Positions 651-58,099 of a DNA stretch of 64,000 nucleotides are shown here, one piece after another. A program made the translations under genes and the position numbers. The notes beneath the pieces are model-generated. The model saw only the letters and a program-made list of their open reading frames with translations. It made no database searches and had not been told where the DNA came from. Each line of letters opens with the position of its first letter. Position 1 is the stretch's first letter. The stretch covers positions 19,268 to 83,267 of the IMG/VR virus record IMGVR_UViG_3300030376_004602. The stretch is one strand, 5' to 3'. Source of the stretch: a virus. Taxonomy: Duplodnaviria > Caudoviricetes.

Positions 651-3600
651 ATGGCACAGTATATACAGACACCAGATTTTAGCTACGAGCCTATGCCTAT
701 GGAGGCATATATGCAGATGGCAAAAGAAGTAGCAGCAGGATACGCTGAAGGTATTAACTCAGCTAATGCATACCTAGCATCGTTGCCTATTGCTACGGGG
801 GCACTTGATGATCCTAATGGGGATAGAGCTGCTCAGTTTAGAGACCAGTACGGTTCTGAAGTAGAAGATGCTATCCAGTTGTATATGGACACTAAAGACA
901 AAAGAAGTCTTGCTAGTGCCCTAACCAACGTTACTAGAAAAATGCAATCTGATGAACAGCTCTTGGTACATAACTATTTGGCAGCTAGCTCAGAAGATAT
1001 TCTTAAAAGGCATCAAGACAATCCTAATGGGTGGTTTGGATATACTTTAGATAATAGCGCTGACATAACAAAAAAGGACGAAAACGGAAACATAGTATCA
1101 AACCTTGTCTTACCTTCTGAAGGGGGAGGTCTTGGAGCTGCTAAAAGTCTCTATGGTAACTACTTATCTGGTTATGATATTGCTCAAGATACTTCTTGGA
1201 TAGATAAGTTTGGAACTAGTGCTGTTAAGTTTATAAATGAAGCTACTAGAACCTTTAACCCAGAAACAGGTAAGTATGAGTTTACTTTTCAAGAAAAGAA
1301 GTATTCCAATATTATGGATTACTTTAAAGGTAATCCCTCTAATGAGTTTATGGAATCTGCTAGAACTCTATACAATAGCCAATCTAATGCTATGACTAGG
1401 GCTTACAGAGGTAAGTATGGATATGAAGAAGGTCTAAATAAATTTATTGAAGACTCATTTTCTTACAGACTTCCTATGGAATACAGTAGAGGTATGGGTT
1501 ATGATGAAACAACACCTGGTCAGTATGCTAATACAACAGGACAAACACAAACTCCTACAACTGAACTATATTCAGCAGATGTACTTGCTAATGTTTTCGG
1601 AGATTTTGGAGACGCCCTAAGCCCAGCTGCAAGAACACTTGTAGATGAAACATTAAAAGAAGCAAGAAGAAGAGAAAGAGAAACAGGAAAATCTCTTAGA
1701 GATATTGCTATGGAGGACGCTGAGTTTGGAAGAAGGCTAACAGAAGCACAACAAGCTTTAATGGCTGAACAAATTAGAGTAAATTATGATCAATCTGTAG
1801 AAGGCGGAAAACTTAAACAAGAATATACTCAAAATATAACAAACTATTTTGATATAGATAAAACAGGAATTTGGCAACATGCTCAGGATTATGGAATTGA
1901 TGCAGAACAACTCATAGAGTTTGATAGCAGATTTGAAATTCCGTTTATAAATCAAGATGTTAATGGTATAGGAGTTCCAAAGCCTATTGGTATGAGCATG
2001 GTAGACGGAAAATATCAAGTTTTGACAGATGAGGGAAAAAGAATAGCAAACGAAGTATCTATTCTTGGGAAAGGCTCTCAGTTGGCAGCTATGTTTTTTG
2101 GAGAGGATTTTCAAGTAACAAACGCTAACAAGTATTCACAGAATGCAACATATTTACGGAACCTAGGTAGAACTCCTGGAGATTCTCCGCTACTTCCTAC
2201 AAGAGAAGTAACAGTAGATGGTTTATTTACAGAAGGTATTTTAGATCCTGATAACCAAAAGGATAGGAATATGTATAACTTTCTTAAAGACCTACCCTCT
2301 CTCACAGTAAATAACGATGTTAGTGCGTATGAGGCTATGGCAGATAATTTTGATGAAGGTGTTTCAAATAAAACTCTTAAAACTCAAAAACGAGATATTT
2401 TTGAGGGAACCCCTAATCCCCTGTACTCTTTATCTTTAGGTATAGCGCCTAGTGATGAAAGATTTTACAATGCTGGGCTTTACTTTGATGCTTTACTAGA
2501 ACAAACAAAAATAACAGGTCTAAAAGCTACTGACTATACTGAAAAACTAGCTGACTATATGAGATCCGGCAATGTAGCATCAGGAGAAACTCTTGTAACA
2601 GCAAATGCACAATATCAAAAAACACTAGATGAAACAGAGGGAGTACAACTTGCTAAGGATTTATATGAAGCATCTACAGATAAAGATGCAGTATTCTTTT
2701 CACAGTATGACGTCTATAGACTTGATGATACAGATGCAGAAGCAACCCCTTTTAGTAGATATAAGCAAAGTAAAATTGCTCCAGGTGATGACATTTTAAA
2801 GGAAGCACTAGACGATAAAGGAAGATCACAAGTACGAATAAATGGATATTCTATTCCTAGCAGTGACAAACTAAGAGGCGGCATAAAAGCTACTATAGGC
2901 ACTACCCCTATATTAGTAATTCCTAAAAACTCTGGACAGCCAGATAAATACACAGACTGGTTAAACAAAGGTCAAACTAGCTTAACAGGACCGAAAGTAT
3001 ATCCACAGGTTTTTTCCGGTCCTTTTGCAGGCATAAGCGGGAGAGATGTGCTAGCTTACTCTGACTTTCATAATGTTATAGTAGAAACAGGAGTAATAGG
3101 ATTTGGCTCGCCTAATAAGGGTGGATTTGACTCTAGACTTGCTAAAACCATAGCAGCGTCCCCTAATCTAGATAGCTCAGGAAAAAAACTAATTGATGGC
3201 AGAAATAATACTGCTCTTGAAAATGCAATACCTGTATCAGACCTGGACGATAGTGATCTTATATCTATACTTAACGAAGGAACAGCTGTAGGACAATCTG
3301 CTACTATATCTTTAAATTTAGGTTATGGGTATAGAAAAGAGGACGAGTCTATTTTTTCTTGGGACGATTACTTCGAAGGGTTTGATCAAAATAACTTTAT
3401 TAGTTTAAGAGAGGCTGATGCTATTGCCCAGTCCCAACAAATTACTGATGATGTAGAAATAGGAAAAATAGCTGAGCTTATGAGTAAGGTTCAGACAAAT
3501 CTAAAAACTAAACAAGGAGAAGACGGAAACTCATACTCTGTAATTAAAGGTAAAGACTTTATAGATATGTATGAAGAGGTTGTAGGTAAGGAACCTGATT

Positions 3601-3695
3601 TTAGTCAACAAGTTAGATTTACAGATGCTAATGATGCCATATTGATGTACGGTCTAAAGGTAGATCAATATAGGGGACCAGAGTCGGGAAATTAA
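651..3695 (+). CDS. Large ejection/cargo protein (1014 aa) of the virion RNAP locus
   Basis: Long ORF just upstream of the RNAP gene, where crAss-like phages encode co-ejected proteins. No catalytic motif recognised. Confidence 0.7.
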   Translation: MAQYIQTPDFSYEPMPMEAYMQMAKEVAAGYAEGINSANAYLASLPIATGALDDPNGDRAAQFRDQYGSEVEDAIQLYMDTKDKRSLASALTNVTRKMQSDEQLLVHNYLAASSEDILKRHQDNPNGWFGYTLDNSADITKKDENGNIVSNLVLPSEGGGLGAAKSLYGNYLSGYDIAQDTSWIDKFGTSAVKFINEATRTFNPETGKYEFTFQEKKYSNIMDYFKGNPSNEFMESARTLYNSQSNAMTRAYRGKYGYEEGLNKFIEDSFSYRLPMEYSRGMGYDETTPGQYANTTGQTQTPTTELYSADVLANVFGDFGDALSPAARTLVDETLKEARRRERETGKSLRDIAMEDAEFGRRLTEAQQALMAEQIRVNYDQSVEGGKLKQEYTQNITNYFDIDKTGIWQHAQDYGIDAEQLIEFDSRFEIPFINQDVNGIGVPKPIGMSMVDGKYQVLTDEGKRIANEVSILGKGSQLAAMFFGEDFQVTNANKYSQNATYLRNLGRTPGDSPLLPTREVTVDGLFTEGILDPDNQKDRNMYNFLKDLPSLTVNNDVSAYEAMADNFDEGVSNKTLKTQKRDIFEGTPNPLYSLSLGIAPSDERFYNAGLYFDALLEQTKITGLKATDYTEKLADYMRSGNVASGETLVTANAQYQKTLDETEGVQLAKDLYEASTDKDAVFFSQYDVYRLDDTDAEATPFSRYKQSKIAPGDDILKEALDDKGRSQVRINGYSIPSSDKLRGGIKATIGTTPILVIPKNSGQPDKYTDWLNKGQTSLTGPKVYPQVFSGPFAGISGRDVLAYSDFHNVIVETGVIGFGSPNKGGFDSRLAKTIAASPNLDSSGKKLIDGRNNTALENAIPVSDLDDSDLISILNEGTAVGQSATISLNLGYGYRKEDESIFSWDDYFEGFDQNNFISLREADAIAQSQQITDDVEIGKIAELMSKVQTNLKTKQGEDGNSYSVIKGKDFIDMYEEVVGKEPDFSQQVRFTDANDAILMYGLKVDQYRGPESGN
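3686..3692 (+). promoter_or_regulatory. Candidate -1 ribosomal frameshift heptamer G_GGA_AAT
   Basis: X_XXY_YYZ pattern in the zero frame directly before TAA (3693-3695). The -1 frame is open from here to 4492. Confidence 0.65.
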
Positions 3696-4492
3696 CGGCG
3701 GAGACTGAAGAGACAACAGAATCCGCTGAGCCTACACCAGTCTCAGAGCCAGAACCAGAGCCTACTATACCAGAGGTGCCGGCTGTAGAAGAAGTAGTTA
3801 TACCTGTAGAAGAAGCTATAGAAACAGCTGAAGAAGTAGTACAAGCAGTTCAAGAAGATTCAAACCCTGCAACTAATGAAGAAGTAGCAGCAGAAGTATT
3901 AGAAACTACTCCAGAGCTGCTTACTAATCCTATATCAGCTAGCCTTGACTTCTTAGGCATTACAGAAACAGATCCTACTCAGTATGATACAATAGCAAGC
4001 TTTTATCAGTCAGCCATTTCAGATACTACTCTCTTAGCAAAGACTAAGAAAAAACTTGCAACTGAAGTTGCCTGGTGCGCTGCTTTTGCTAACTATATTC
4101 TTAATGATGTAGGTATAGAAACTAAGCAAATGCTTGAAGATTATGATACTAAATATGCAAGAGTAAGGGCTAAAAACTTTATAGATTTAGGAACTCCTGT
4201 ATATAACTCTTCTAAGAATACTAAAAAAGATTTGCAGTCTGCTAAGATTGGGAGCCTTGTAGTTAAAAAAGGAGAAGAGGGGTACCACGTAGGATTCTTT
4301 GCAGGTATCAATCCAGATAACGAGGATGAAGTTCTTATACTAGGCGGTAACCAAAACGATGAAGTAAATGTTACAACCTATCCTCTCAAGCAAATTGTAA
4401 CTATAAACAGCTTAGAAAATGTTCAAGAAGCAGACTCTAAGGTAGTTGAAAAAATCAGTAAAGATATTAAAGAAAGCGGCGCTACTAGATAA
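3692..4492 (+). CDS. Acidic Pro/Glu linker plus CHAP/TIGR02594-like cysteine peptidase (peptidoglycan hydrolase); probably a -1 frameshift extension of the 1014-aa protein, alternatively starting at GTG 3776
   Basis: Motifs TEVAWCAAF (Cys at 4076-4078), YHVGFFAG (His at 4286-4288) and LILGGNQNDEV. Stop-free linker-like codons run from 3692 to the GTG. Confidence 0.8.
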   Translation, partial: LTAETEETTESAEPTPVSEPEPEPTIPEVPAVEEVVIPVEEAIETAEEVVQAVQEDSNPATNEEVAAEVLETTPELLTNPISASLDFLGITETDPTQYDTIASFYQSAISDTTLLAKTKKKLATEVAWCAAFANYILNDVGIETKQMLEDYDTKYARVRAKNFIDLGTPVYNSSKNTKKDLQSAKIGSLVVKKGEEGYHVGFFAGINPDNEDEVLILGGNQNDEVNVTTYPLKQIVTINSLENVQEADSKVVEKISKDIKESGATR

Positions 4493-4521: not shown

Positions 4522-7500
4522 ATGGCTAAGAAAAAAAAGACTCCTCCACCAATAACTTCTTTAGATAATAGCAGAGGGTACTCTGGCAGATTACATGCAG
4601 GAACCTTTTCAGGAGCTACTAGAGATGCTACAAGTCTTTTTGGAAATGCTGTATTTGCTGAAACTCTTAAGGGCCTTCAAGAAAATGCCGAGTCTAGATC
4701 TAATGACTATAAGATCCTTAGACAACAGGCTGCTAATGAACAAGGTGGATTTGAAAAGTTTGGAACTGCTTTAGTATCAGGAGTATCAAAAGGCCTTGTT
4801 AATGGTGTAAATGGAATTGTTTCTCTTGTACCCTACCCAGATGATGTATCTGCAGAAGGACTGCAAAACTGGAACTGGGATATTATGTCAGATGATTTTT
4901 CTGACAGATCTATGTTGTCTAATTATTTAGATGAAGGCTCTAAGGCTATAGGACTACAAATGCCTATATATGACGAAAATCCCTATAACTTCTATGCAGG
5001 TATGGACGCAGGTCTTACAAGTATTGGAGAGTTTGCTATTCCCGGTAAAATTATTAGTAAGGGAGTAGGTCTTGCTGCTAAAACAGTAGGAAGAGCACTT
5101 AGGGGAGTTGGTAGAGGTGTAAGAGGAGCTACTTCGTTAGGCAGAATGTCTACTAGATCTAGACTTGCAAAGTTTGGAGCTAGGACAGATGACTTTCTAA
5201 CTAGGATGTCTATGAGTCCTAAAAATCAAGCTTTTCTACAAACCGGTGCTTCTGGTTTTGCTATGAATAGATTTGAGGGTACTGTTATGGGCCACCAGGT
5301 TTATGAAGAAACAATGCAAGAGCTAGCACCTGCAGTAGCAGCTGGCCAGCTTACAGAAGAAGAAGCTCAAAGCTATGCCAACCAAGCAGCATTATCTGTA
5401 AGAAATAAGAATGCTGGAATGATGATGACCGACATGTTTGCTATGTATGGCATCTTTAAGGCTAAAGGTATGACTAGGAATCTTCTTACTAAACCTGGTT
5501 TTACTTCTGCTGTTAAAAATAATCTTCTTAGTGCAAAAGCTTGGAATCCTCTTAAGAAAGCTGCAGCTACTAATCCTTTTTATCAAGCACTAGTAGAAGG
5601 TGGAGAAGAGATTATTCAAAGTAATATTCAAAAGCAATCTCAATATGATGCTTTAAAAGGAGCTGAAGCTTTAGCAGCATCTAGAGTAGGTAAAGAAGAA
5701 GAACTTGTATATGTTCCTGACTCAGACTCTTACTACGAAAGATTAAAAGATAATCTATTTAGTAAGGATGCTGCTTTTGAAGGCGCTATTGGGTTCTTTT
5801 CCGGTCCTATACAAAGTGTTGCCCTTGAGCAAGGTATGGGCATAAAGCCTCTACTAGATAATCGTAAGTATAAAAATTACACTAAGGAAATTAATGCTCT
5901 GCAACAGAGTATTAAACCTGGAGGATCTGTAACAGGATTAGCAAAAAAATTAAAAGTCCAGGAGCAGATTGAAGACCTTAAACTAAAGCGAGCACAAGAA
6001 ACATCTAAAGGAGCATACGAAGAGCAGCAAAGAGTTATAGGCGAAGTTAAAGCTGATGTTAAAAATGCTCTGAAAGAAACTGTAAACATGGAGGACCTTA
6101 TAGAAGAGGTTCAGGAAAAAGGAGTTGAAGGGGTAGAAGAGTTGCTAGAAGGAACTGCATTTGTAAATACTGCAGTAAAACATTTTCAGAATGGTACTAC
6201 AGAAAATCTAGAACGTATGTTAAAAGACCTTGCAGAAGGCAAGGGAGACCCAGCTACGTTTGGAGAAAACACTCAGCAGAAAGCAGCTGATCTTTTAACT
6301 GAAATGTTAGAAATGGAGAAGCAATGGCTGCGTTACCATGACTTTGAAAACAAAGCATCTATTTTTGCAGCAATTCAGAATGAAAAAGAGATTGATAAAG
6401 CTATTAATCGTACACAGTCTCAGAAAGAAAATGCTCAAGCTAAAATTCTTACTCAGCTAAACGAGTATGCGCCTAGTAATAACTATGGTTTTGATGAGAA
6501 TGGTAACCTTACTATTACCCCAAAGTCTGAAGAAGAGAAAAAGTTAGACGATGACCTACCCGGTCAACAAACATCTTTGTTTCCAACAAACGATGAAGTC
6601 CGTGCATTTTATGAAAGAATGCCAGAAAAAAAGGAACTGGATGAGGTTAACCAAACTCAAAACACTTTTAGAGAGGTTAAAGGCGAAGTATCAAAGTTCC
6701 TCAATAATATTGCTTCAGGCAAAGGACAGAGAGCTGCTAAGAAGCTTAGAAAGCAAAGAGAAAAAGCTGCAAGAAGAGCTGCAAAAAGAATTATGGCTAC
6801 TAATAAGGTTGAGGCTGGAGAAAAAACTAAAGCCAAAACTAATTCTGAAAAGTCTGCTATATCTAACGCTCAAGCTAAGGTAAATTCTGACTCTAAGATT
6901 GTAGTAAAAAAAGTAAAGCCTAAGGCTCCTACAGCCCCACCGCCGCCTACTTCTGCTGAAAAGAAGTCAAAAGAAGAAAAAGAAATAGAAAAAGGGAAAG
7001 CTGCAGAAACAAACAGGAGAACTACTGCTAAAAATGGCGAACCTCTAAAATCAGTTTTTGCAAAGGCAATAGCAAAAGCTGCAGCAAAGTCTAAAGAAAA
7101 AGAGCCTGTAAATGATGATAGTGCTTCCGAGGGGGAAAATTTTACAAAGTCTACAGAAAATAAATCTTCTCATATTCAAGGTAGAACAGACGGTGTTACT
7201 AATGATTCTGAAAATGCTTTCTGGACTCTTTCTGATCCTAGTCTTACAGCTGAAGGAGATGTAATAACTTTTCAGGTAGAGGACCAAAATATTGGGGCTG
7301 CAAATGACCCGACTAGCCCTACAAGAGGTCTTAAAGTAATTGATGTAAAAGGTCGTAAAAAAGAAATAGCAAAGCACGAAAACTCTACGTACGGATCTAA
7401 TATTTCTGAGGACCAAGCTGCAGATGATGCCGAGGCTATTGCTATTTATAATGAAAGAGGCGACAGAATAGGGTATGTGGGATCTCCATTAGCTATTTCT

Positions 7501-10500
7501 TCTAAAAGAAGAAATATGACTACGGAAGAGATGCTAGAGGAAAAAGAAAACCTTCGTACAATAAGAGCTCAGATCCTATCTAAAACTCGTAATGGAGAAG
7601 CTGCAAAAGGTAAGATTAACTCTATAACCAAACAGTATACTAACTTCAAAGAGGAAGGGTCTCCAGACTCAAGATCCATAGACGTATTTGGAACAGATGT
7701 TATTATTGGTGTTGCTACTGCAGAGGGAGTTACATTTGAGGGAGGCTCTAATAACCTTACTCAAGCTGCAGGCTCAAAAATAGAAGCTAAAATGGAGGAC
7801 TCTGAAAGACTAGACGACCTTACACCAGGTCTTCCTTATGCTTTTGTCCCTGTTAGAAAAGATAACAAAGGAGCCATCTACTATGAGGCATTCCCCCTAT
7901 TACCTCAGGATCTAAATGCAGGTTTTATTAATACAGTTATCTATGCCCTAAAGTCTTGGGCAGGCGGTATCGATGCTAATATTGATAAACAAAATAGAGA
8001 CGAGGCTTCAGCAACATTAGGGCTTAATCTTAAAAAGAATACTAAACTTCGCAGCTTGTCTATGCTGTTAGAAAGATTCTTTTTACCACGTACAGAACAT
8101 CCTTACGTAGCAGATGATGAGACTAGAACTTATATCTATTTAAACCAATCTAATTCAGAAAATGAAGTAATTGAGCTTGTTGAAAATGTTGGAGGACAGC
8201 AGTTCGTAAGAGGGACAATTAGAAGAGGGGAACAGTTAACTGAGGATACTATTGCTACCTTAGAACAGTTTCTTGCCAATGAGCAGGTACAGATTGACCT
8301 AAGAAATATTGATGGAATACCTTACATCATTACAGACCGTGATGGTAATGTAAAAGAGTCAATCGAGTTGGCCGACTTTAAAACCCACGTTCTAAAGAAT
8401 ACTACTACAGGTCTTAATCCTGTGGAGTCTGTACTTAACGCTACAGGCCGTACTATTTTTTATAAATCTCCTAAAGTTACCTTTTCTGTAGAGAGTGATA
8501 GATCTTTAGATACCTCAGCACCTGAAAATGAACAGGAAGAAGAAAAGCCGCCATGGGATACTTCTAAAGAAAGTGACCTAACTATAGAGCAAATATCTAA
8601 ACTACCATTTGTAGAAAGAATACCAGCCCTTATTAAAGCAGGTATAATTGCATCTGATGTAACATATAACGTAGGTAAAAGATTTCCTATAATAGTAAAT
8701 ATTGGAGGAGTAAAAGTAGGATTCTACAGAAGCTCTGAAGGAACAGGAGGTAAGAAAAAAGGTGCTTGGACACCTATGTTTGGATACGGCGAGGATGGAG
8801 GTAATCCTTGGTTAATTAAAGGAAATATTGCTACACAAGTAAATGTTAACTATGGCAGCAGTGCTATACAAGAGTATGCGGATATACTTAACAAAACTCT
8901 TAATTGGGACCTTAGTATAGATAAAGGACAAGTAAAAGATCACCCTTTTTATAAAGAACTTAGACTAGTTGAGAGCACGCAAGCATTTAACAAGGAGTTA
9001 TATGGGGTGGAAAATCTAGGTATTATTAATGGTGAAACAGATGTTAGCGGTTTTATTAATTCTAAAGTACAAGAGATTAACGCCGCTACAGGTAAACCTT
9101 CATACGATGAGGCCGATCAAGTAGATCCTGATATCCTAAGCGACCTAGAAACAGACGATGATTTGCCATCTTCATCCGAAGACTCTTTTATCCGAGGTAT
9201 TGAAAAAGAGGAATATACGGAAGAAGAGAGGAATGAATTAGAAGACATTATTTCAAGGTATGTTAAAGATCCAGAGGACGGTTATGATGCAGTAATATAC
9301 TTTACCCAAGGGACTACACCCCCTGGACGCGGAATAGAGGACTTTTTATCTGTTGAAGCTAATCTTAATAGAGACCCCCTCTATAAAAAATGGCAGGAAA
9401 AACATACTGAACGTATAAAAAAAGAATCAACTAGGGATACAGCTCCAGATGTTGACGATTTAGTAGGAGACGCTGTACCACCTGAAGTAAAAGAAGAGCA
9501 CAATAAACGACATATTAAAGGCCTTACTCCTACTCAAAACTTTGAGATAGTAGGGCACTTGGCTAATACTATGTTCAGAAAGCTAGTAGAGCTTACTACT
9601 GATCAAAGAGTTAAGAAAGTATCTAGAAATAAACTATATCAAGAAGCGCTAGAAGAAACTATGGCTTCTTTTGATAAATATATTGCAAGACTAGAAAAAA
9701 ACTTAGCCAGAAAGCAAGCTCAAGAAAACGAGGCTTTAAAGAATAAGATGGAGGCTAGAATAGCAGGTCTTAAAAAGTACAAGCAGGCTGTAGAAAACGA
9801 AGCTGCAAAGACTAAAGAGCTTGCTACTCAGAAGCTTAATCAGTTTGAGGGTGTTAAGGGCCAAAGGTCTGAAGAGGATTTAGAAAATATAGAAGAGACT
9901 GCACACGAAAGAAGAAACTTTAGCGAGGACTTTTTCTTGACTGTAGACAGTAAGAAGAGCACATCTAAAGCTCTAAGAAAGTTCCTAAGCAGCATACCTT
10001 TAATCAAGACTAAGACTCAGACTATTAAGAAGGGCGATGATAACATTACTGTGTCTAGTAAAGCTATGCCTGCCCGTACTACATTTGGTGCTCCAAAGTA
10101 TGCAGACTTTGATTCTGTGTATAATAAACTACACTCTCTTGAAGTAGGATCAGATGCTAATTTATCTAACCAACTTACTAAGCTAGCACAGCTGTACGTA
10201 GACTATCCAGGTATGAAGCAGGAGCTCAACTGGCTACCAGGTCTAATAGTAAGTCTAGGAATAGATAACTTGCAAGGCACTAAGAAAAATAATAGAGGAG
10301 AAGAAAAAACCCTAGCAGATGTATTTTTGGAAGAAGCTTTAGGGCCAGACGATGCTGACCTTAGTAATCTAGTTAAGCTTATGGCTTCTACTGACTTTGG
10401 AGTTCCGGCAGGAGAAAAAATCCAAAGACAGTTTGCTATTAATATGTCTAAGGCTAAGGTAAAGGCTCCACTAGTTCTTTATCGTGCTGTACAAAAAGGA

Positions 10501-13500
10501 GGCAAAATTAAGTTTGAGGTAAACCTTACAGACCATAATAATACTGATAACTCTAAGCAGATCATAAATGAAATGCAGGAAGGCTTCCTAAATAAGCTGT
10601 ATACATATAATCCTGAAACAGAAGAGTACGAGCCAGATGAGACTGCTTTCGAGAGAGCTATTCAGCTTTTAGAAAGCTACAAGAAGACTCCTCCAACCCA
10701 GAAAAATAGTGATAACTACAAGGACCTTAGAAAGCAACTACAAGAGGTCCTAGGTATATCCATCTCTACTCAAACTTTCCATACTCTTGCTACAAAAGGA
10801 TATAGACTTGGAAGGCGTAAAGTTCTTCTTAATAGAAAAAATAAGAACGTATTTAGTATTGACGGGGCTCCATTTAGAGTGTTATTAGACGCTCTTAAGA
10901 GTTCTAAAGGCAAGCCATTCAACCCTGAGGTAAATGTCTTTACAGATAATGCTATTAAGAATCTAGCACAGATGGAATCTCTATCTCAGACAGCTACTCT
11001 TAGTAATGCTTTCCGTGTAGGCGATAAGACTATCTATACATATACAGAGCATAACTATGCTACCTCTCAGATTCAGACTATTCTAACTGATCCAAAGTAT
11101 AGAGAGCAGCTACAGAACACTGTCTTTGCAGGTGAAAGTCTTTGGCTACACATGATGTCTCCTATGGGAGGACAAGTCCTAGAGATAGACGGAGATGTTG
11201 ATGCTGGTTCTAGTATTGAACTAGGTATTCTAAACTTCCGCCCTGTCAAAGAAAGAAAGGAATCTAACCTAACTACTGATGACCTAGATGGTCAGAATAT
11301 GGACGATAACCTCTTTACAAGGTTGGCTCTATTTACTGCAAATGCTAGTGCTAGTAGAAAGTCTATTGTAAAAAAGGACGAAAACAACAAAAATATTTAC
11401 TCTTTTAAAAGCCGTAAAAGCACTACTGTACCTCTTGCTTACTCTGATAAACATTCAGTACTAACAGTAACAACAGCAATGCCTGTCTTTACTATTGGTA
11501 AGGGGGACGGGGTTACCTCGGATACCATTAATATTTTTTACGAACATGTATTGATGGCAGAGATCTCTCGTATTCAAAATATGTTTGATATCGATGGAAC
11601 TAACGATGCTGCATATGATGCCGGTAAGTCTGCTTTCCACCTAATGCCTGAGATGAATACTACTACGGTAAAAGATAGAGGTGGAGAAACAGACACTGTT
11701 GCAAACTATGCTGCTAGAGGAGCTTTTGATCCAACATCTGTTAATTATGATGAAAAGGTTGTAGGAGCAACAAAGAGAGCACTGGGAGATCAACTTAATG
11801 TTCTTATTAATGAGCAGATAGAAGACTTTGCAAAAGCAGGTATTAACCAAGTAGCAGGAAAGAGTGAGGCTACTTTTGTATCTAGCGAGTACATCAAGAT
11901 GCTAAAAGCCCAGCATAAAAATGCAGGAGTAAAATTAGAAGGAAATAAGATTACTAAAGCTGTAGCTGCTGATTATGTGCTTAATCATATGCTGTCTACT
12001 GCAAACATGTTCCAAATGTTTGTAAAAGATCCAGCACTGTATACTAAAACAGATGGTGAAGGAAATGTAGACGCTGCTTCTACCTTAGAAAATATTCAGA
12101 AAAGACTTGCTGCAGTCATTGCACCAGGTACTGCTACTGCTATAGAAGAAGGTAATGATGCATATGTACAACTCTTTGCTAATGATGTTAAGTATTCTGA
12201 GTTCTTAGGAGAAGGAATTAAGGAGTACTTCAAAGGCATTAAGAATAAAAAGCACAGAGAGTCTTACAAGGGCGCTGAGATTACCGATGGTCAGGAGTTA
12301 ATTACCTACCAGGAGTATCTAGGCACAATGGTTAGCCAAGGTCAGATTACAAAAGCAGAAAGAGCTCAGATAGAAGCTGTCGTAAAAGATCCAAATAAAA
12401 AGATTCCAGAGTGGATGATGGACGTTCTTTTTGGTGCAGAAAAACCAGTTGCTGTAGCTGATAAGTTCGTCACACTTAAAGATGGTCAGAGAATAGAAAA
12501 ACGTGTCTATGTTAAAAGCTCGGGTCTACCTTTAATTCCTAAATTTACTAAAGGTACAGAGCTAGAAAATCTTAGAAAAGCTTTAGAACAAATACAAGAA
12601 AAAAGCGGTCTTCCGGTTAGACTTGCATTTAGTTCAGCAGTAAAAGTAGGATTGCCTGAAACTGCTAAAAACACTAATATCCAATATACAGAAAAGGATA
12701 TAGAATCTCTAAAAGAGGAACTACCTGAAGGACTATCTGCTGAAAGAAGGAATGAAGAAGAAGAAAAACTAGATGCTTTACTAGGTACTATTAAGCCTGT
12801 TAAGGAACTAGTGTCTATGTTTAATGGAGACCTTACAGAAAAAGAACTTAATAGTGATGAGGCTTTCTTAGAAGATGAATCTCTTCGACCTCCTAGGCAG
12901 ATTCTACAACGTAAGTATTGGAGAATCCAGCAAGCTACTCCTAACAAGAATAAAGACATAGCTACTAGAGGTACTCAGGAGTCTAAGATTATTCTGTCTG
13001 AAGTAAAAGAAGCTTTTGGAGAAGAAGCAGGTACTAAGCTTATTGAAGATTGGAACAGCCTACATAGTAAACTATTTGGTCTTCGTATTCACGAACTAGA
13101 AAGAGAGATTCTAAACCCAGACGGGTCTATAGACAGAAAGGCCTTAGCTGAGTTCCTAGACAGAGATGCTAATGAAGGAGGAGTTAGTGTCAATACTAGA
13201 TATGGATTAGAGGTAGATCAAAACGGAAAGTTCGTTATACCTCTGGATCTATCCGCTGGTACATTAGAATATCAAACTCTTATTAATGCTATAGCTAATA
13301 AGAGGATTGCTCAGAAGAAAGTAAAAGGACAGTCTACTGTATTAATGACTGAGTTTGGCTTCTCTATTAGAGAGGGCCAAGATCTATCAGACAGTGGTAT
13401 TGTTTGGACTCAAGGGTTTGATTTTCAACATGGTAAGCTTAAGCCTGCTAGAGTAGAAAACGGAGTTGTTAAGCCTGCTCAGGTTATCGTGCCTAACAAG

Positions 13501-16500
13501 TTCTTTGTAAACGGTAAGAGGGTAAATCTTAAAAAGTACATTATCAAAGGTGAGCAAGGCCAGATGATTCTGGATACTAATCGTATGCCTGCTGAAATAC
13601 TAAAAGGGTTTGGATTCCGTATTCCTACTCAAGGGTATAACTCTATGGCAGGTATTGAGATCGTAGGTTTCTTGCCAGAATCTATGGGAGACGTTGTCGT
13701 AGCCCCAGGTTCATTTGTAAACCAAATGGGATCTGACTTTGATATTGATAAAATGTTTAACTACTTCTATAAGCTAGAAAGAAGTACAATATCTCGAAGA
13801 GCGGTTACGGATGCAACTATTGCAATTAGTGACGAAATAGCGGCAATAGAGTCTGGTAAGTCTAGCCTAGAAGACTTTAAGAAAAGAGGAGATAGTGAAG
13901 AAAATTACCAAGCTTATTTAGAAGATATTAATGATCAGATAAAGTCTTTAGAAGAAGAGCTACAAAATCTGAAAAGTAAGAGTACTACTTTTGTAAAAGT
14001 AACAGCGGATGATTTAAAAGATAAACCTTTTAATGAGCTTACTGAAAAGGAGATTGCTAGACTAGAAGATGCCTTGCTTAATGAAGGTCTCGACATGAGA
14101 CTAAAGATTATGGGCAAGAATGAAATCTACCAGACTATGTCTGCGCCTCTTGACTTTGGTCTATTAAAGTATAAAGACGAAGAAGGAAACGATACAGGTC
14201 TTAAGTTCTACTTTAAGGATAAGAGGATGTCTACTAGAGCATCTAGCCGTAACCCTCTTGCACCTGGATATCATACACAGAAGTATCAAGATGCTAGGGG
14301 AGCAGGAGCAGGAGTTGGTGTATTTGCTAGAGGTATTACCTTCCAGTCAATGGCTCAATCAGGTGTAGATGTAATTCCAGGAGCTGACTTTAAGCTTGGT
14401 AGATTTAAGTCAAATAACATTACTGACTCAAAAACTGTTACTAATAATAAACGCTCTAAGATAGAAGTCCTTACAGCATTCTTATCTGCCTCTCTTGATA
14501 ATGAAAAAGAGCAGATCATGAACTACCTAAATATTAATGATGATACTTTTAGTACAGCTACAGCTATGATTCACTCTGGCTTTGAGGAGGATCTTGTTTT
14601 GGCATTCTTGGAAAGTCCTGTTTTAAGACTACTAGCAGAAAATAAAAGATCAAGAACTAAAAAAACTCAGATAGCCTCATTTTCAATATTTAATAGGCTG
14701 GTATTAGACTTAGTGCCAAAAGATTATAAAAACCTGACCGAAAAAGAAAAGGAAGAAGAAAGAGAAAAAATAATAGACGAGGCACGTAAAGAGCTAGCAG
14801 GCTCTTCTTTTGAAACTAAAGAAGAAACTTTTAACAGGTTAATCCAAAACTCTGATGTTACTTTAAAATATACTCCTCCTAAGATAGGAGTAAGTAGTGC
14901 TAAAATACAGTTCTTAAATGAGGAAGGGAAGCCTTTAGAAAAAGATGAATTAAAAAGAGCAAAACTTTTAGCTATTGGGTCGCTAGATTTAACAGGACAA
15001 TTCAAAGATATATCAACGGATATACTTGCAGCACAAAGACTACTAAATGTAGATTCAGGAGGACTTGGTAAAAATGCTTATGAAGCGTATTCAAAACTAG
15101 AAGACTATATAGGCTTAGCAGATTTACAATTTGGAATATCGTTTCCTCACCCTATTTTTAAAGCTCTTATAGGAGAGCACAGGACTCTGGTTTATCCTGC
15201 AAAGATGGAAGGACAAGAAGAAGTAAATGCTGAAGAACTTGCAGAATATTTAACAAACGAAACTGAGCTAATAAATCAAGGCTTCATTAGGATAGCAAAA
15301 GCTCCAGGTAATACAGACGTATACTTTTTAAAACCAGTTTCAACTCCAGCTACTATTTTTGCAGAGTCTATGGGGCTTACATCTCGTATATACGAGGATA
15401 CAATGCCTGTATTAGTTGACTATGTTTTAAATAATGTAGACCTATCCTATCCAGCAATTCCTAAAAGTCTTCGAAATCAGTTTCGTGCAGACAAAAAGGC
15501 TAAGATTGTACATGATACTCTTAGATCCATTCTATTCTCTTCTACCGAAAACTGGATATCTGGTCAGTTTGAAGAGGCTACGGGACTAAGTACTCAGCCA
15601 ACACAGCAAACTAGTGATACAATAAATATATATGCAGGAACAAATGAGAATGCTGAGTTAAGTAATTTTGCTAACAGACCTGTAATGGATCCGTTAGGGG
15701 CTGAGTTCAAAAATGTAGAAGCAGCATTTCAATATGCTAAAACAAATTTTGCAGACGGAGACAATGAGTCTATCAAAATGAAACTCCAAAATGCTACTGG
15801 TGCACAAGCTAAGGCATTAGGTAGAAAGATTAAAGGTTTAGATGTAAAAGCTTGGGATGAAAACTCTGCAGCTATAATGAAGGGCCTCATAAAGGACTCT
15901 TTTGAGCAAAATCCTAAAGCTCTTGAAAAGCTATTAGCTACAGGTAATGCTACATTAACTCATACACAAGATAAGACTAAGTACCGCGAATTGTTTCCTA
16001 AACTATTAATGGAAGTAAGACAGGAGTTAGGCGGTTCTCAATCAACAGCCTCAAGCCTGGTGCAGATTCGTAGAGCACTTATGTATGGAGATAACACTCT
16101 AGCACTGCGGGTTAAGGAAGCTATTAAAGATCGTAGACTTTCTAAGAACCCATTCCTAAAGTCTCTAGTTCTATCTACTAAAGCAGGCGAACGTCATAAG
16201 GTGACCTTTGCAAACTTTACTCCTGATGGTATGATGGATGAGGACAAAGCAGATGCATTTGCTCAACTCTTTCTTATGCCTGACCAGAGTCCAATAGAGG
16301 GATTAAAACTAACTCCCGCACAGCTAGGAGCTCTTCTTGTAACTTACTCTATGGTAACAGGAGGTAACCAAAAGGCTCTGGAGTTTGTTAGGTTTGTTCC
16401 TAACTCTTATCTAGTAGGAACAGGTTTCTATAAAGCTATCAATGATAAGCTTACTGAAACTTTATCAACTCGTTCTGGAAAAACAAATCTTAGTATGTCT

Positions 16501-19500
16501 ATTATGTCGCAGCTTGTTCAACACAATCCTACGTTAACTTATAGAAAGAAAAGAACTCAAACAATTAAGAAAATAGAAGGGTCAGATAACTTTACTATTT
16601 CTGGTTTAAAAGTAGAAGGATCAAAAAGTTTAGGCACCTTAAGAGCTGTTGATAAAAGCCAAAGGGTACCAGAAACCGTTCCCTTTTTACATACTATTTC
16701 TAAAAAAGGAAACATTTCCTTGTATTACTTTGATGAAGATCTTAACACTCCTGGTAATAAAGCTATATATACTAAAATTGATGTTTTAGGAGATGGAGGA
16801 GACTTAAACGAGTTTTCTGCAGGTCTAATTAATGCCCAGTCACAAAATGCATTTGGTATTTCTGTTGTACCGTCTAATAAAAAGGCATACGTAGAGGAGT
16901 CTCTTCAGCAAGAGGAAACTTCTGAGCCAGATGCTAAAGGAAAAATAGACTTAGAATCTCTTATACAGAAAGTAGTAAATAAAACAGTAGAAAAAGTAAT
17001 CAAAGTAAATACAGAGCCTGGAGTTAAGGTATCAAGAAAACTAGAGTTAAATTCAAATGGAGAAAGTGATCCTATAAAAACTATAGAAGCAGTCGCTACA
17101 GGCTCTGACAGTCCTATGTTTAGACAACTTGCTGCGGCATTCTTAACTAGAAAAGACGATCTTAAAAATATAACGTTTAAAACCAAAGCTCTTAAAGATG
17201 GTAAAGATGCTGGAGGATCTTATACTTATGATAGCAAAACTATAGAGCTAAGCTACTCTAACGACAAGTTATATAATGAATATGCTATCCTTCATGAGTT
17301 TGGACATGCTTTGACTAAAGATGCTATAGTAGCATTTGAAAAGGGGGGTACCTACCCTAATGCTAAGGTTAAGCAGGCAATGAAAAATATTGCCGAAGTT
17401 CAGAATCTATATGTTCAATACCTAGAAGCACTAAATCCTGTAGAGCTTGAGGCTTTCAAGAAAAAGTATGATGAGTATAGGAGAAGAAAGGGACTAAGCG
17501 GTAAAGATAGAGCTAAACTACCTCCTCTAGACTTTAGTAATAAAAAAGAACTAGGTAAGTACTACGGAGGTCTTAAGCTATCGGAGTTTGTTACTATGGT
17601 ACTATCTGATGAGGTATTGCAAGCAGAGCTTGATAAAGTAATGCCTACGTTAGAAGGAGCAGCTGCTGCATCTGAAAAGAGTTTGTTTAGAGAACTACTA
17701 GATGCTATTAAAGAAATTCTTGAAGGTCTTACAGGAGTTAGCCTGTCTAAGTATACTGTCGAGCAAGCAATGACTATTGTCACTCAAGGTATGGATACAA
17801 AAGTTCAAGGTAATCCTGGGTCTACTGCATCTACAGATACTACTAATGATAGTGCTAAAGAATTTGCTAAAAAGTTTGCGCCTAAGATAAATCTTAAAAT
17901 AAAGGGAGATAAGAATAAAGATTTATTACCAGGAAGTGAAGCCTCTAATGTGTTTGACTCTAATCCTAAACTAGCCAATCAAGTATATGGAGCTTTAGGA
18001 CTTACTGTTGTGAACGAGTCTTCTACTAACATAGCTTCTACAATTTATGAGTTGATCCCAGATATTACAGAAAGCAAAATTGATGAAATATATAATAACT
18101 ATGTTTCACTAATAGGAAAAGCCAGAAAGGATAAAGAAATATCTAAAGATGCTTTCAAAAAATTATTGAGAAAGTACCAAGTCTTTAACTACAAGGATAC
18201 CTACATATTTGGGCAGTATGATATGGACAATGGGCTATTTGTAACTAGAATAAACTCATCTCCTACTTCTAAAGAGCTACTAGCTGAAGCTTTACCTACA
18301 TTAGTAAAGCAAGGGATTGATTTTGCATCGTTTGTGCCTAAGGATGTAGCTCAGAAATATAAGAGAAGTGGGTACTCTCTAAGTAAAGAAGGTTTTGCCT
18401 ATAACTTTAAGGGGGAAGATATGGTTAAATACCTAGCTGTTTCTAATCCAAACATATCTCTAAAAGTCTTTGGTAAAACTTTAGAAGAAATCTCTGCTAA
18501 AGAAATAAAAGACTTTAGCAAGGATCAGACACTAAGCTATAAACCAGTGGAGATAAAAGGAGAGCTAATAGAAAAGGCAGGTAATGATTTATCTAAGATA
18601 CTAGAAACATACCTTAATCAATTTGGTATAGTAGTAAAGGATGTAAGTACTATAAAAAATGCTCTAAATATTGATGAATTAGGATTTGCTGATATCTTGT
18701 CTAAAGTTGCTTATGTAGAAAACAACAAGGATCTTCCTCCTATTGCAGGAGAGTTTATTGCCTACATGATGCAGTATAACCCTCTAGTATCTGAGATAAT
18801 AAAAGAGCTATCACAAACAGAAAACTATAAAAAATTAGACAAGTCAGAGTATTTTAAAATTGTAGGAGGATTAATCTCTGATGATCTACAAAATAAACTA
18901 GATGAAAATTATTCTCAGTCTTTACTACAAAAGTTAAAGCAGTTAATACAAGAGTTTTTCAGCCTACTAAGAGGTACTCGTATAGATTTAATAAACAAGA
19001 ATGTAGGTATCATTTCTAACAATATTCTACAACAAAATAAAAAGCTAATTACAGCTTCTTTGTATAAGCCTGGAGCTTATGGAAAGCCTACTAAACAAGT
19101 TAGTTTAAAAGAGGCAATGGCTTCTGATAAATTTGGTTCTTCTATCATCAACAAGTTAGCTAAGGAAGGCTTTATATTAACAGGTTCTACCTCTCTAGGA
19201 GAACAAGGTACTATACAAAGACCAGATGAAAATCTACTGCATGATATTGACTGGGTAAGTCCTTTTAATAGAGAAAAGACTGCTGAAAAGTTTTTAAAAC
19301 AGTATCCAGATGCTATAAAAATTAGAGACATACAAGGAGATAGTTTTGTTACAGATACTTGGATTATATCCCCTGAAGGATATAGTATAAAAAATCTAAA
19401 CAAACAATCTGATTACAATATAATTACTTCTTACGATGTTGTTGATAACAAAGGAAATATTGCAGGTACATACAGACTAGAAAAAAAGGCTAAACAAAAA

Positions 19501-56584: not shown

Positions 56585-58099
56585 ATGGCTCAGAAACTTT
56601 TTAATACTCAGCTGTACAGACCAAAAGATTTTAAGGGTCTGATTGCTGATAATCACTTTTACGAATTGTACCAACAGAAGCCACAGCTTCTAGACAAAGC
56701 AATTCAACAGATTTACCAAATGAACCTACAAGGTTCAATGGTGAACTTCGTTAACCGTTTCCCTACTATGGAAGTAGATTTGGAGAACGGATTCTACCAA
56801 TGGATGCTCAAAGGTCAAGAGGACAAAAACGTACCTCTTGTTGAGATTCAATCAGGCGCAGGTGGCGCAACCTCTACTGGAGATTCGTTAGGTTCTCAAC
56901 GTCAAAGAGTTCGTCTTGTATTTGATGAGCCTATGTTTGAAAGAACTAACGTAATCAAAGGAGAGACTGATGACTACCACTTCCTTGTAAAAGAAGTACA
57001 TGATGATGGCGGACGTTACGCTTATGAGTGTGAGCTCTTAAACGATGACCTAGCTGTTTCATTTGTAGTAGGTACTGATATTTCAGTTGGAGATCGTTTC
57101 TCTAAGTTCTATGACTTAGTACCAGGTACTCTTTCTTACGAAGGTGCGGAACCTTATTTTACTTCTCCATTCAAAATGCAGAACCGTCTGTCTATGTGCC
57201 GTATGCAGTACAAAGTACCAGGTTCAAGCATTGAGAAAGGTCAGAACGAACCATTGGAGTTCCCATTCATGTACAGAGGCCAGACTGAATCAGTTTGGAT
57301 TAACTACATCGACCTTGTAGTAATGTATCAAGCAGAAGAGCTTATGGCTCGTGCAGCTTTATACGGAAAGAAAAACTGGACAGTTGATTCAGGTTACTTG
57401 AACTTTGACGATGTAACTGGTTTCGAAATCGGTGCAGGTTCTGGATTCTTCGAGCAAATTGCTCCAGCTAACCGTCACATGTATAACACCTTCGATCTTG
57501 ATTACTTGATGGAAGTTGCTCTTGACATGTCTATCGGTAAGATTGGTAGAGGAGATCGTCACCTACATATCATCACTGGTGAGAGAGGTGCTATCGAGAT
57601 CCACAAGCAAATCCAAGCGAAAGCTAACGGAGATACTATCTACAGCAACGTAACTACAGGTAATGGAGCTTACGGAGCTGGTGCTGCTAACAATACTGGA
57701 GCAATCAACCCAATGAGCTTCGGATACCAATTTGTAGAGTATAACTACTACAACGGTATCAAGTTGACTGTTGAGATTGCAGACTTTATGGATGATGATG
57801 TTTACTTCCCTAAACGTCACCCAGAAGGAGCTGGTATTGCTGAGTCACACAGAATGATTGTAATGGGCTTCGGAGAATCTGCAGAGGTTCACAAAGTTCG
57901 TCCAAGAGGTCGTGATGACATGTATGCATACATCGCTGGTTTACGTGATCCATTTACCGCAGGTGGTAAAGGGAAAACTTCTCCAAAGATGGTATCTAGC
58001 CCAATCGATGGATACGAAGTGCACTCCGCTAAGTTTGGTGGTCTAGTAATGAGAGACCCGACTAAGGTCCTTGACTTCCAACTTAACGTTAACCAATAA
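56585..58099 (+). CDS. Major capsid protein
   Basis: 504 aa, codon use typical of highly expressed genes, followed by a strong terminator. crAss-type features (FKMQNRLSMCR, TGERG). Confidence 0.9.
   Translation: MAQKLFNTQLYRPKDFKGLIADNHFYELYQQKPQLLDKAIQQIYQMNLQGSMVNFVNRFPTMEVDLENGFYQWMLKGQEDKNVPLVEIQSGAGGATSTGDSLGSQRQRVRLVFDEPMFERTNVIKGETDDYHFLVKEVHDDGGRYAYECELLNDDLAVSFVVGTDISVGDRFSKFYDLVPGTLSYEGAEPYFTSPFKMQNRLSMCRMQYKVPGSSIEKGQNEPLEFPFMYRGQTESVWINYIDLVVMYQAEELMARAALYGKKNWTVDSGYLNFDDVTGFEIGAGSGFFEQIAPANRHMYNTFDLDYLMEVALDMSIGKIGRGDRHLHIITGERGAIEIHKQIQAKANGDTIYSNVTTGNGAYGAGAANNTGAINPMSFGYQFVEYNYYNGIKLTVEIADFMDDDVYFPKRHPEGAGIAESHRMIVMGFGESAEVHKVRPRGRDDMYAYIAGLRDPFTAGGKGKTSPKMVSSPIDGYEVHSAKFGGLVMRDPTKVLDFQLNVNQ

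Follow-up and report, generated by a model that had tools for sequence, protein, structure and literature searches.

The question raised by this locus is how a cell wall hydrolase can be produced from an open reading frame (ORF) that follows the end of another gene, lies in a different frame, and lacks a conserved start codon of its own. The ORF is found in a stretch of 64,000 nucleotides (nt) of the virus record IMGVR_UViG_3300030376_004602 (Duplodnaviria; Caudoviricetes; positions 19,268 to 83,267), which was analysed at its full length and is referred to here as the window. The upstream gene, P0001, encodes a protein of 1014 amino acids (aa), and its last two sense codons form a slippery heptamer, G_GGA_AAT. 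The original prediction was that ribosomes slip at this site and add the hydrolase to the upstream protein, and the conservation of the heptamers, the collinear fusions found in relatives, the selection acting on the downstream frame, and the lack of a conserved start in that frame all support it. A programmed -1 ribosomal frameshift at G_GGA_AAT, which would yield two products from a single messenger RNA (mRNA), is the reading preferred here, with a probability of roughly 85% on the sequences compared.

The slip site and the two reading frames

The elements on which the argument turns are the following.

651..3695, + strand: the 0-frame gene P0001, of 1014 aa, for which homologues were found, without a Pfam family
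3686..3692, + strand: the slippery heptamer G_GGA_AAT, of the X_XXY_YYZ type, formed by the last two sense codons in the 0 frame
3693..3695, + strand: the 0-frame stop codon TAA, directly 3' of the heptamer and invariant in six of six variants
3692..4492, + strand: the -1 ORF read after the slip, with 266 codons and a stop, comprising a linker (approximately 3692-3913) and then the hydrolase domain

The final codons of P0001 are TCG GGA AAT TAA, at 3684-3695, and the heptamer abuts the stop. The -1 frame contains many stops upstream of the slip site, and is open from 3674, after a TAG at 3671-3673, up to a TAA at 4490-4492. Both the gene end and the course of the -1 frame had been described in this way in the original prediction, and both were confirmed on the sequence. 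The first codon read after a -1 slip is the TTA at 3692, so that the junction reads ...GPESGN|LTAETEETTESAEPTPVSEPEPEPTIPE..., with the added portion starting LTAETEE, and the virtual frameshift product amounts to 1014 + 266 = 1280 aa.

In-frame heptamers of the X_XXY_YYZ type occur at 0.44% of the codon positions in the ORFs of the window, and one abuts the stop in a single case, that of P0001, among the 50 ORFs of at least 100 aa. P0001 contains eight in-frame heptamers, and the one at 3686-3692 opens the -1 ORF of 266 codons, while the other seven open between 0 and 29 codons. One of these seven is the A_AAA_AAG at 1070-1076, behind which the -1 frame is open for 14 codons only; this site may be adventitious, and would give a truncated product if it were slippery. 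Read-through of the 0-frame TAA was considered as another route to the hydrolase and was rejected, given that a TAG at 3786-3788 is met after 30 sense codons, which leaves the domain out of reach. No tRNA genes were found in the window.

Conservation of the layout in related phages

A split of this kind could come from a single nucleotide lost or inserted during assembly, and such an assembly indel is excluded, because independent assemblies and a contig from a different study agree without a gap. The layout recurs in at least nine assemblies, including contigs from ENA, from JGI-independent Logan runs, and from NCBI (P0006 alone is indexed in 57 blocks), and the contig from run X5, which belongs to the different study, spans 3342-3747 with substitutions and no gap. 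The 1-nt error that had been named as a possible refutation is disposed of by this comparison of contigs.

The family of P0001 is small, with seven matches in the word-indexed search and 13 representatives among 1.84 billion proteins. The DNA was compared for nearly all of these representatives, which fall into three architectures. The first is the frameshift layout, found in six variants (the window; L004; L007-L010; L011/L012; L175; L177), all of which have a heptamer in the 0 frame, a TAA directly behind it, and the hydrolase ORF in the -1 frame. The heptamer itself comes in two types: G_GGA_AAT-TAA in the window and L004 (71% aa identity; TCG GGA AAT TAA in both), and A_AAA_AAG-TAA in L007-L010 (38% identity), L011/L012 (37%), L175, and L177, where the preceding codon is ATA, AGA, or GTA.

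In the second architecture, the linker and the domain are fused in frame to the upstream protein, as in L013/P0007 (1234 aa), L014/P0009 (1267 aa), and L015 (1272 aa), and the fragments P0015 and P0017 are also of this type. L013, L014, L015, P0015, and P0017 are homologues of the whole upstream protein. When the virtual frameshift products are aligned with these fusions, the two are collinear straight across the junction, with, for example, ...IRKK|VTAETEE... in L011 standing against ...VRKKAEAAAQGEE... in L013.

The third architecture is devoid of the hydrolase, and is represented by L005/L006 and P0014, in which the gene ends in ...QYR-TAA, six codons before the end found in the window, without the GPESGN tail in which the slip site lies. 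The hydrolase ORF is missing from two lineages. In L005:7019-7073, L006, and P0014, the QYR TAA is directly followed by the conserved AT-rich leader of the giant gene that comes next in the genome.

The case centres on the in-frame fusions and on the fact that two canonical heptamers of different sequence, each expected by chance at a rate of approximately 0.0044, occupy one and the same position. A conserved heptamer next to the stop and an in-frame fusion had been proposed as alternative outcomes of a comparison with relatives, and both were found, the former in two types.

Beyond this family, no close relatives of the window were recovered from the annotated phage collection by blastn or tblastn, and the exact junction pattern was not found in viral_contigs. 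Most of the 160 loci matched by the alignment of the domain are distant (approximately 30% identity) and lie in unrelated large proteins. In L095-L097 (3882-4714), a related hydrolase domain (32% identity) is encoded by a separate gene behind an unrelated 1126-aa ORF, and the ATG of this gene overlaps the upstream stop (TAATG), which represents a third way of expressing the module.

Selection and start codons in the -1 frame

Purifying selection acts on the -1 ORF. The ratio of nonsynonymous to synonymous divergence (dN/dS) is 0.12-0.16 in the domain and approximately 0.25 in the linker, at a dS of approximately 0.8-1.1, and the ORF is therefore translated. The codon from which gene callers begin this translation is the following.

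3776..3778, + strand: GTG taken as the start (238 aa) by gene callers, located in the linker, at a position that is not conserved in relatives

The best surviving of the alternatives, itself improbable, is that the hydrolase is a separate gene, translated from this GTG or from some other internal or non-canonical start, perhaps by re-initiation after the TAA at 3693. This is how the gene callers annotate the ORF, and the distant L095-L097 have a stand-alone gene with an overlapping ATG. The distribution of start codons argues against it. In the window, the first ATG, GTG, or TTG of the -1 frame is the GTG at 3776, in the middle of the linker, as originally claimed, and the first ATG is found at 4130. 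The start-type codons of the different variants lie at non-homologous columns (43 in the window, 32 in L004/L011, and 51 and 57 in L007), and the GTG of L004/L011 is a GTA in L007. In L175, 74 codons pass without a start-type codon, up to a TTG located 14 residues inside the conserved domain. An ATG before alignment column 161 is found in none of the variants, while ATG is the start codon of nearly all the other large ORFs in the window, and no start codon that could serve translational coupling lies near the stop of P0001. The linker upstream of the candidate starts is also conserved as protein, and the homologous fusions run through it; for a separate gene, moreover, the presence of two canonical heptamers in the correct frame would be a coincidence, at the chance given above for each.

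The purifying selection and the map of start codons together indicate that the hydrolase domain is made, and that it is not made from a conserved start of its own; a conserved separate start in the homologues, which would have spoken for the gene callers, was not found. Gene callers begin the hydrolase at an arbitrary GTG or TTG, which yields proteins of 238, 250, 231, and 180 aa depending on the relative, and the 1280-aa product that the preferred reading predicts escapes them.

The predicted hydrolase domain and its linker

The portion added after the junction begins with a low-complexity, acidic linker of approximately 75 aa, rich in E, P, T, and V, which leads into the catalytic domain.

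3914..4426, + strand: NlpC/P60-CHAP (TIGR02594-like) papain-fold domain, identified by hidden Markov model (HMM), structural model, and structure matches

The domain matches TIGR02594 at 1.2e-15 (58 bits, against a curated cut-off of 70.55), CHAP at 7e-4 to 1.6e-3 (19-20 bits, against a curated cut-off of 26), and PHROG 1259, "baseplate hub subunit and tail lysozyme", at 3.7e-15. Among 40 relatives of the domain, 31 match CHAP (the best at 1.4e-8) and seven match NLPC_P60. A search of the PDB with the domain sequence returned nothing useful, and a first structural model, built from six sequences, was too poor for use, with a predicted local distance difference test score (pLDDT) of 51. The AlphaFold model obtained from the alignment of 40 sequences has a pLDDT of 87, and it matches autolysins, MepS/Spr, RipB, the CHAP domains of LysK/LysGH15, and Tse1 with Z scores of 9-11 and root-mean-square deviations of 2.5-3.6 A over 104-131 residues. 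The top 42 entries of the structure search are all members of the NlpC/P60-CHAP superfamily. The catalytic cysteine of the W-C motif (TGC, 4076-4078) and the histidine (CAC, 4286-4288) are invariant in the 40 sequences. On the model and these matches, the domain has the NlpC/P60-CHAP fold and is a predicted peptidoglycan hydrolase; the CHAP/TIGR02594-like assignment made at the outset is borne out by the papain-like fold and the invariant Cys and His, with HMM matches of the window protein that stay below the curated cut-offs.

The downstream hairpin and the conserved island

The region immediately 3' of the slip site is conserved at the nucleotide level beyond what the encoded protein would account for, and contains a potential secondary structure.

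3693..3750, + strand: conserved island immediately 3' of the slip site, in which synonymous change is suppressed
3696..3728, + strand: candidate stimulatory hairpin, CGGCGGA/UCCGCUG (7 base pairs, bp) plus CUG/CAG (3 bp)

Between the window and L004, the first 18 codons (54 nt) of the -1 ORF carry a single synonymous change, with a dS of 0.07, in comparison with 0.84-1.09 elsewhere, so that synonymous divergence is approximately 10-fold lower in the 54 nt that follow the slip site. Approximately 48% of the codons differ in the rest of the -1 ORF, a rate at which no more than one difference in 18 codons has a binomial probability of approximately 1e-4. The X5 contig matches the window up to 3747 and diverges beyond this point, with the -1 frame still open.

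The hairpin has 10 bp, interrupted by a 2x2 internal loop, and a 9-nt apical loop, and the TAA at 3693-3695 forms the entire spacer between it and the heptamer. Its folding energy is -14.1 kcal/mol (z -4.94), and none of 200 dinucleotide shuffles folds as well. The pairs are intact in all five of the variants evaluated, with both substitutions falling in loops, and no match to the hairpin was found in Rfam. Two further structures were discarded. A long-range hairpin, GAGACUG/CAGUCUC, which appeared in the minimum free energy folds of 62-88 nt, has its pairing broken in L175 by A.C and G.A mismatches and has a z of -1.3, and an H-type pseudoknot built from the two stems would leave 0 nt for loop 1.

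The proposed mechanism and its alternatives

Most ribosomes would terminate at the TAA at 3693 after reading 651..3695, which gives the 1014-aa protein. Some would slip back by one base on G_GGA_AAT, with the tRNA-Gly passing from GGA to GGG and the tRNA-Asn from AAU to AAA; in the A_AAA_AAG of the relatives, AAA and AAG would be re-read as AAA and AAA. Two features would probably favour the slippage: the stop next to the heptamer, through its slow decoding, and the hairpin at 3696-3728. The ribosomes that slipped would continue from the TTA at 3692 through the linker and into the hydrolase, giving the 1280-aa form, the enzyme of which might open the cell wall during genome delivery. A short default product accompanied by a rarer long form is the usual outcome of slips of this type. 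According to the original prediction, the long form would be a minority and only some of the ejected subunits would cut the wall. We infer the ribosomal nature of the slip, its efficiency, and the stimulation of the slip by the hairpin. The idea of a "shifty stop" has been put forward before (Weiss 1987, as cited in PMC5009743), and heptamers of the A_AAA_AAG and G_GGA_AAG types are established as shift-prone, with G_GGA_AAC being used by archaeal viruses (PMC5009743; PMC4066793).

A still less probable alternative than the separate gene places the change at the level of the nucleic acids, with slippage of the RNA polymerase, or a subpopulation of DNA molecules with an extra A or G, giving an in-frame message. 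The addition of one A to the A6 run of the A_AAA_AAG variants produces exactly the fused frame, at the homologous place there is an A7 run in the fused L013 and an A9 run in L179, and minor variants of this kind are invisible in contigs. The runs in the window and L004 are only G3 and A3, however, which is too short for appreciable polymerase slippage (PMC5009743), and both types of heptamer share the 0-frame X_XXY_YYZ pattern and the 3' hairpin, which are features of ribosomal slippage. A contribution of polymerase or DNA slippage is conceivable for the A6G sites, though not for G3A3.

Least probable of all is a broken fusion gene, in which a 1-nt mutation or assembly error split an in-frame ancestor and left the downstream part silent and decaying: the split is probably derived, since the in-frame fusion is the state of the most distant homologues, but the ORF is intact in six variants, with the low dN/dS of its domain and the invariant catalytic Cys and His, the independent assemblies and the independent run agree without gaps, and two different heptamers are kept exactly at the stop.

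A number of points weigh against the frameshift. The comparison covered nucleotide and protein sequences, with the runs represented by contigs. Neither G_GGA_AAU nor its efficiency was found documented in the frameshift literature searched, and the re-pairing of the tRNA-Asn to AAA is near-cognate. In-frame heptamers are not avoided elsewhere in P0001, as the A_AAA_AAG at 1070 exemplifies. The hairpin starts 3 nt after the heptamer, while known stimulators usually lie 5-9 nt from it, and it presents no covariation, because all the copies are nearly identical. The 54-nt island may instead, or also, be the recombination junction of a mobile cassette. In addition, a related domain has a gene of its own in L095-L097, so that separate expression is possible in principle.

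A probable recombining cassette and a possibly reversed layout

In L004, L007, and L011, the upstream genes are approximately 40% identical in nucleotides, and, starting at the TAA, the hydrolase ORFs share 95-100% identity, with the similarity dropping again in the next gene. In comparison with window positions 3693-4492, the break in similarity in L004:4224-5068, L007:6154-6998, and L011:4188-5032 is sharp and falls exactly at the slip site. L175 and L177 are mosaics, with a gene end of the L007 type joined to a downstream part of the window type. This high identity behind divergent genes, together with the mosaics, indicates that a unit composed of the stop, hairpin, linker, and hydrolase recombines between divergent phages, with its breakpoint at the slip site. 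Every recipient gene ends in its own heptamer in the correct frame, which argues for selection on frameshifting.

The in-frame relatives appear to include the converse arrangement. In L013:6796-6838 (L178:2026-2068), an in-frame A_AAA_AAA (6796-6802 in L013) is found at the homologous domain boundary, followed by a 5-nt spacer and a GC-rich hairpin, GGCAGCUGC/GCAGCUGCC, of 10-11 bp (-20.1 kcal/mol, z -2.7). The hairpin of L178 has a z of -3.5, and its sole change with respect to L013 is located in the loop. In both, the -1 frame stops two codons on (AGC UGA), and this dnaX-like set-up would give a short form without the hydrolase. P0017, a more distant in-frame fusion, has an A9 run at the domain boundary (L179:618-626), with a -1 stop three codons on, and is a candidate for transcriptional or ribosomal slippage to a truncated form. 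L014 and L015 have no slippery site at the domain boundary.

These arrangements suggest that most lineages may make two forms, by a recoding that runs in opposite directions in different lineages. In the clade of the window, the short form would be the default and the slip would give the long one, while in the in-frame relatives (L013/L178 and L179) the default would be long and the slip would give the short form. A more general reading, in which the family is built for two forms, with and without the hydrolase arm, the boundary is a hotspot of two-way recoding, and the stop, hairpin, linker, and hydrolase travel as a recombining cassette, is offered tentatively, at somewhat less than even odds.

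Comparison with known systems

Phage proteins with a C-terminus extended by -1 frameshifting are a classical finding. In T7 and T3, a -1 slip near the stop of a virion gene (10A/10B) gives a minor C-terminally extended form, at a site of the G_GUU_UUC type in T7, with a distant stimulator and the addition of approximately 50 aa of capsid protein (PMC5009743). In the window, by contrast, the heptamer abuts the stop, the hairpin follows directly, the extension of 266 aa carries an enzyme, and the gene occupies the position of a crassvirus internal protein. The G/GT pair of lambda uses nearly the same heptamer (G_GGA_AAG, both being G_GGA_AAN), yields a long and a short protein in a fixed ratio from one mRNA, and keeps its position, rather than its sequence, from phage to phage, although its products are chaperones absent from virions, of unrelated protein families (PMC5009743). 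The A_AAA_AAG of L007, L011, L175, and L177, with its 3' hairpin, recalls the tau/gamma site of Escherichia coli dnaX, this combination being the paradigm of dnaX and of the insertion sequences (PMC5009743, PMC4066793). The shift truncates the protein in dnaX and would lengthen it in the window, while the slip in L013/L178 would, as in dnaX, reach a stop shortly afterwards, two codons on. In dnaX, the spacer is of 6 nt and an upstream Shine-Dalgarno-like element helps, while the G/GT site of lambda is not known to need a 3' structure.

The closest functional analogy would be with the Gag-Pol of the retroviruses, in which the X_XXY_YYZ pattern was discovered, and in which a structural protein is extended by an enzyme in a minority of the molecules and packaged at a set ratio (PMC5009743). 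Gag-Pol differs in its eukaryotic ribosomes, RNA viruses, and pseudoknot stimulators, and in that its enzymes are a protease, reverse transcriptase, and integrase rather than a wall hydrolase. Virion or ejected proteins that carry a peptidoglycan hydrolase include the Tal protein of Tuc2009/TP901-1 and gp16 of T7, neither of which is known to have a sequence relationship with the protein of the window. Forms with and without the hydrolase are present in Tuc2009/TP901-1 virions and arise by proteolysis, not by recoding, and the lytic transglycosylase of T7 gp16 is encoded in frame.

The full-text literature searches returned no report of programmed frameshifting in Crassvirales genes, the matches being to disrupted RNA polymerase (RNAP) ORFs, sequencing errors, and the general concept, and no frameshift-appended virion peptidoglycan hydrolase was found. 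The statement that such recoding had not been described for crAss-like cargo genes agrees with the literature searched. The Crassvirales are among the most abundant phages known, and their passage across the cell envelope is poorly understood. What the locus suggests is a peptidoglycan hydrolase delivered with the virion, the dose of which per particle would be set by a translational frameshift, and this would provide a concrete mechanism of entry. The natural series formed by two heptamers, in-frame fusions, a possibly reversed layout, and loss of the domain could also show how frameshift sites arise at domain boundaries, and how they move by recombination.

Genomic context and the cargo question

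The window derives from a crassvirus, with a match to Crass_capsid (PF23898) at 1e-89 at 56585-58099 and a family A DNA polymerase, and the public runs in which the stretch occurs come from marine metagenomes. Immediately before P0001 lies a gene with 75% identity to the 1214-aa protein of L005 that carries crAss_CARG1. The order of the cargo-1 orthologue, P0001, and a giant RNAP-like gene is that of gp45 (C1), gp46 (C2), and gp47 (RNAP-associated) in PhicrAss001 (PMC10172136). The giant gene is a single ORF of 5145 aa at 4522-19959, downstream of the hydrolase ORF; its first 2500 aa match no Pfam family at an E of 1e-3, and giant genes of 2200 to more than 4600 aa stand at its position in the relatives.

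The original prediction treated P0001 as a crAss-like cargo or ejection gene. The gene order matches that of gp45-gp46-gp47, while a similarity to cargo protein 2, whether in sequence or in profile, was not found. P0001 has no Pfam or PHROG family, and together with six homologues it remains without a Pfam match at E values of up to 5. Membership in crAss_CARGO2 (PF25712)/gp46 was rejected, with a negative HMM search and a probability of 0.1% in the hhalign comparison of the family alignment with gp46. Apart from the position of the gene, the sole support comes from a language-model match of P0001 to the crAss_CARGO2 cluster, with a score of 0.91. By position, P0001 corresponds to cargo protein 2 of the crassviruses, without belonging to the family of that protein, and, going by the gene order only, it would be packaged and ejected. 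The virion atlas of PhicrAss001 reports no hydrolase, wall-degrading activity, or recoding for the cargo proteins (PMC10172136), and gp46 would differ from P0001 in these respects as well as in the lack of HMM or profile similarity.

A further observation concerns the neighbouring cargo protein. In L014:438-3998, the precomputed Pfam families place a DUF2272 match beside crAss_CARG1 in the gene of cargo protein 1, and DUF2272 also weakly matches the hydrolase domain of the window. If the match in L014 is real, it would represent a second wall-hydrolase-like module, carried by the adjacent cargo protein.

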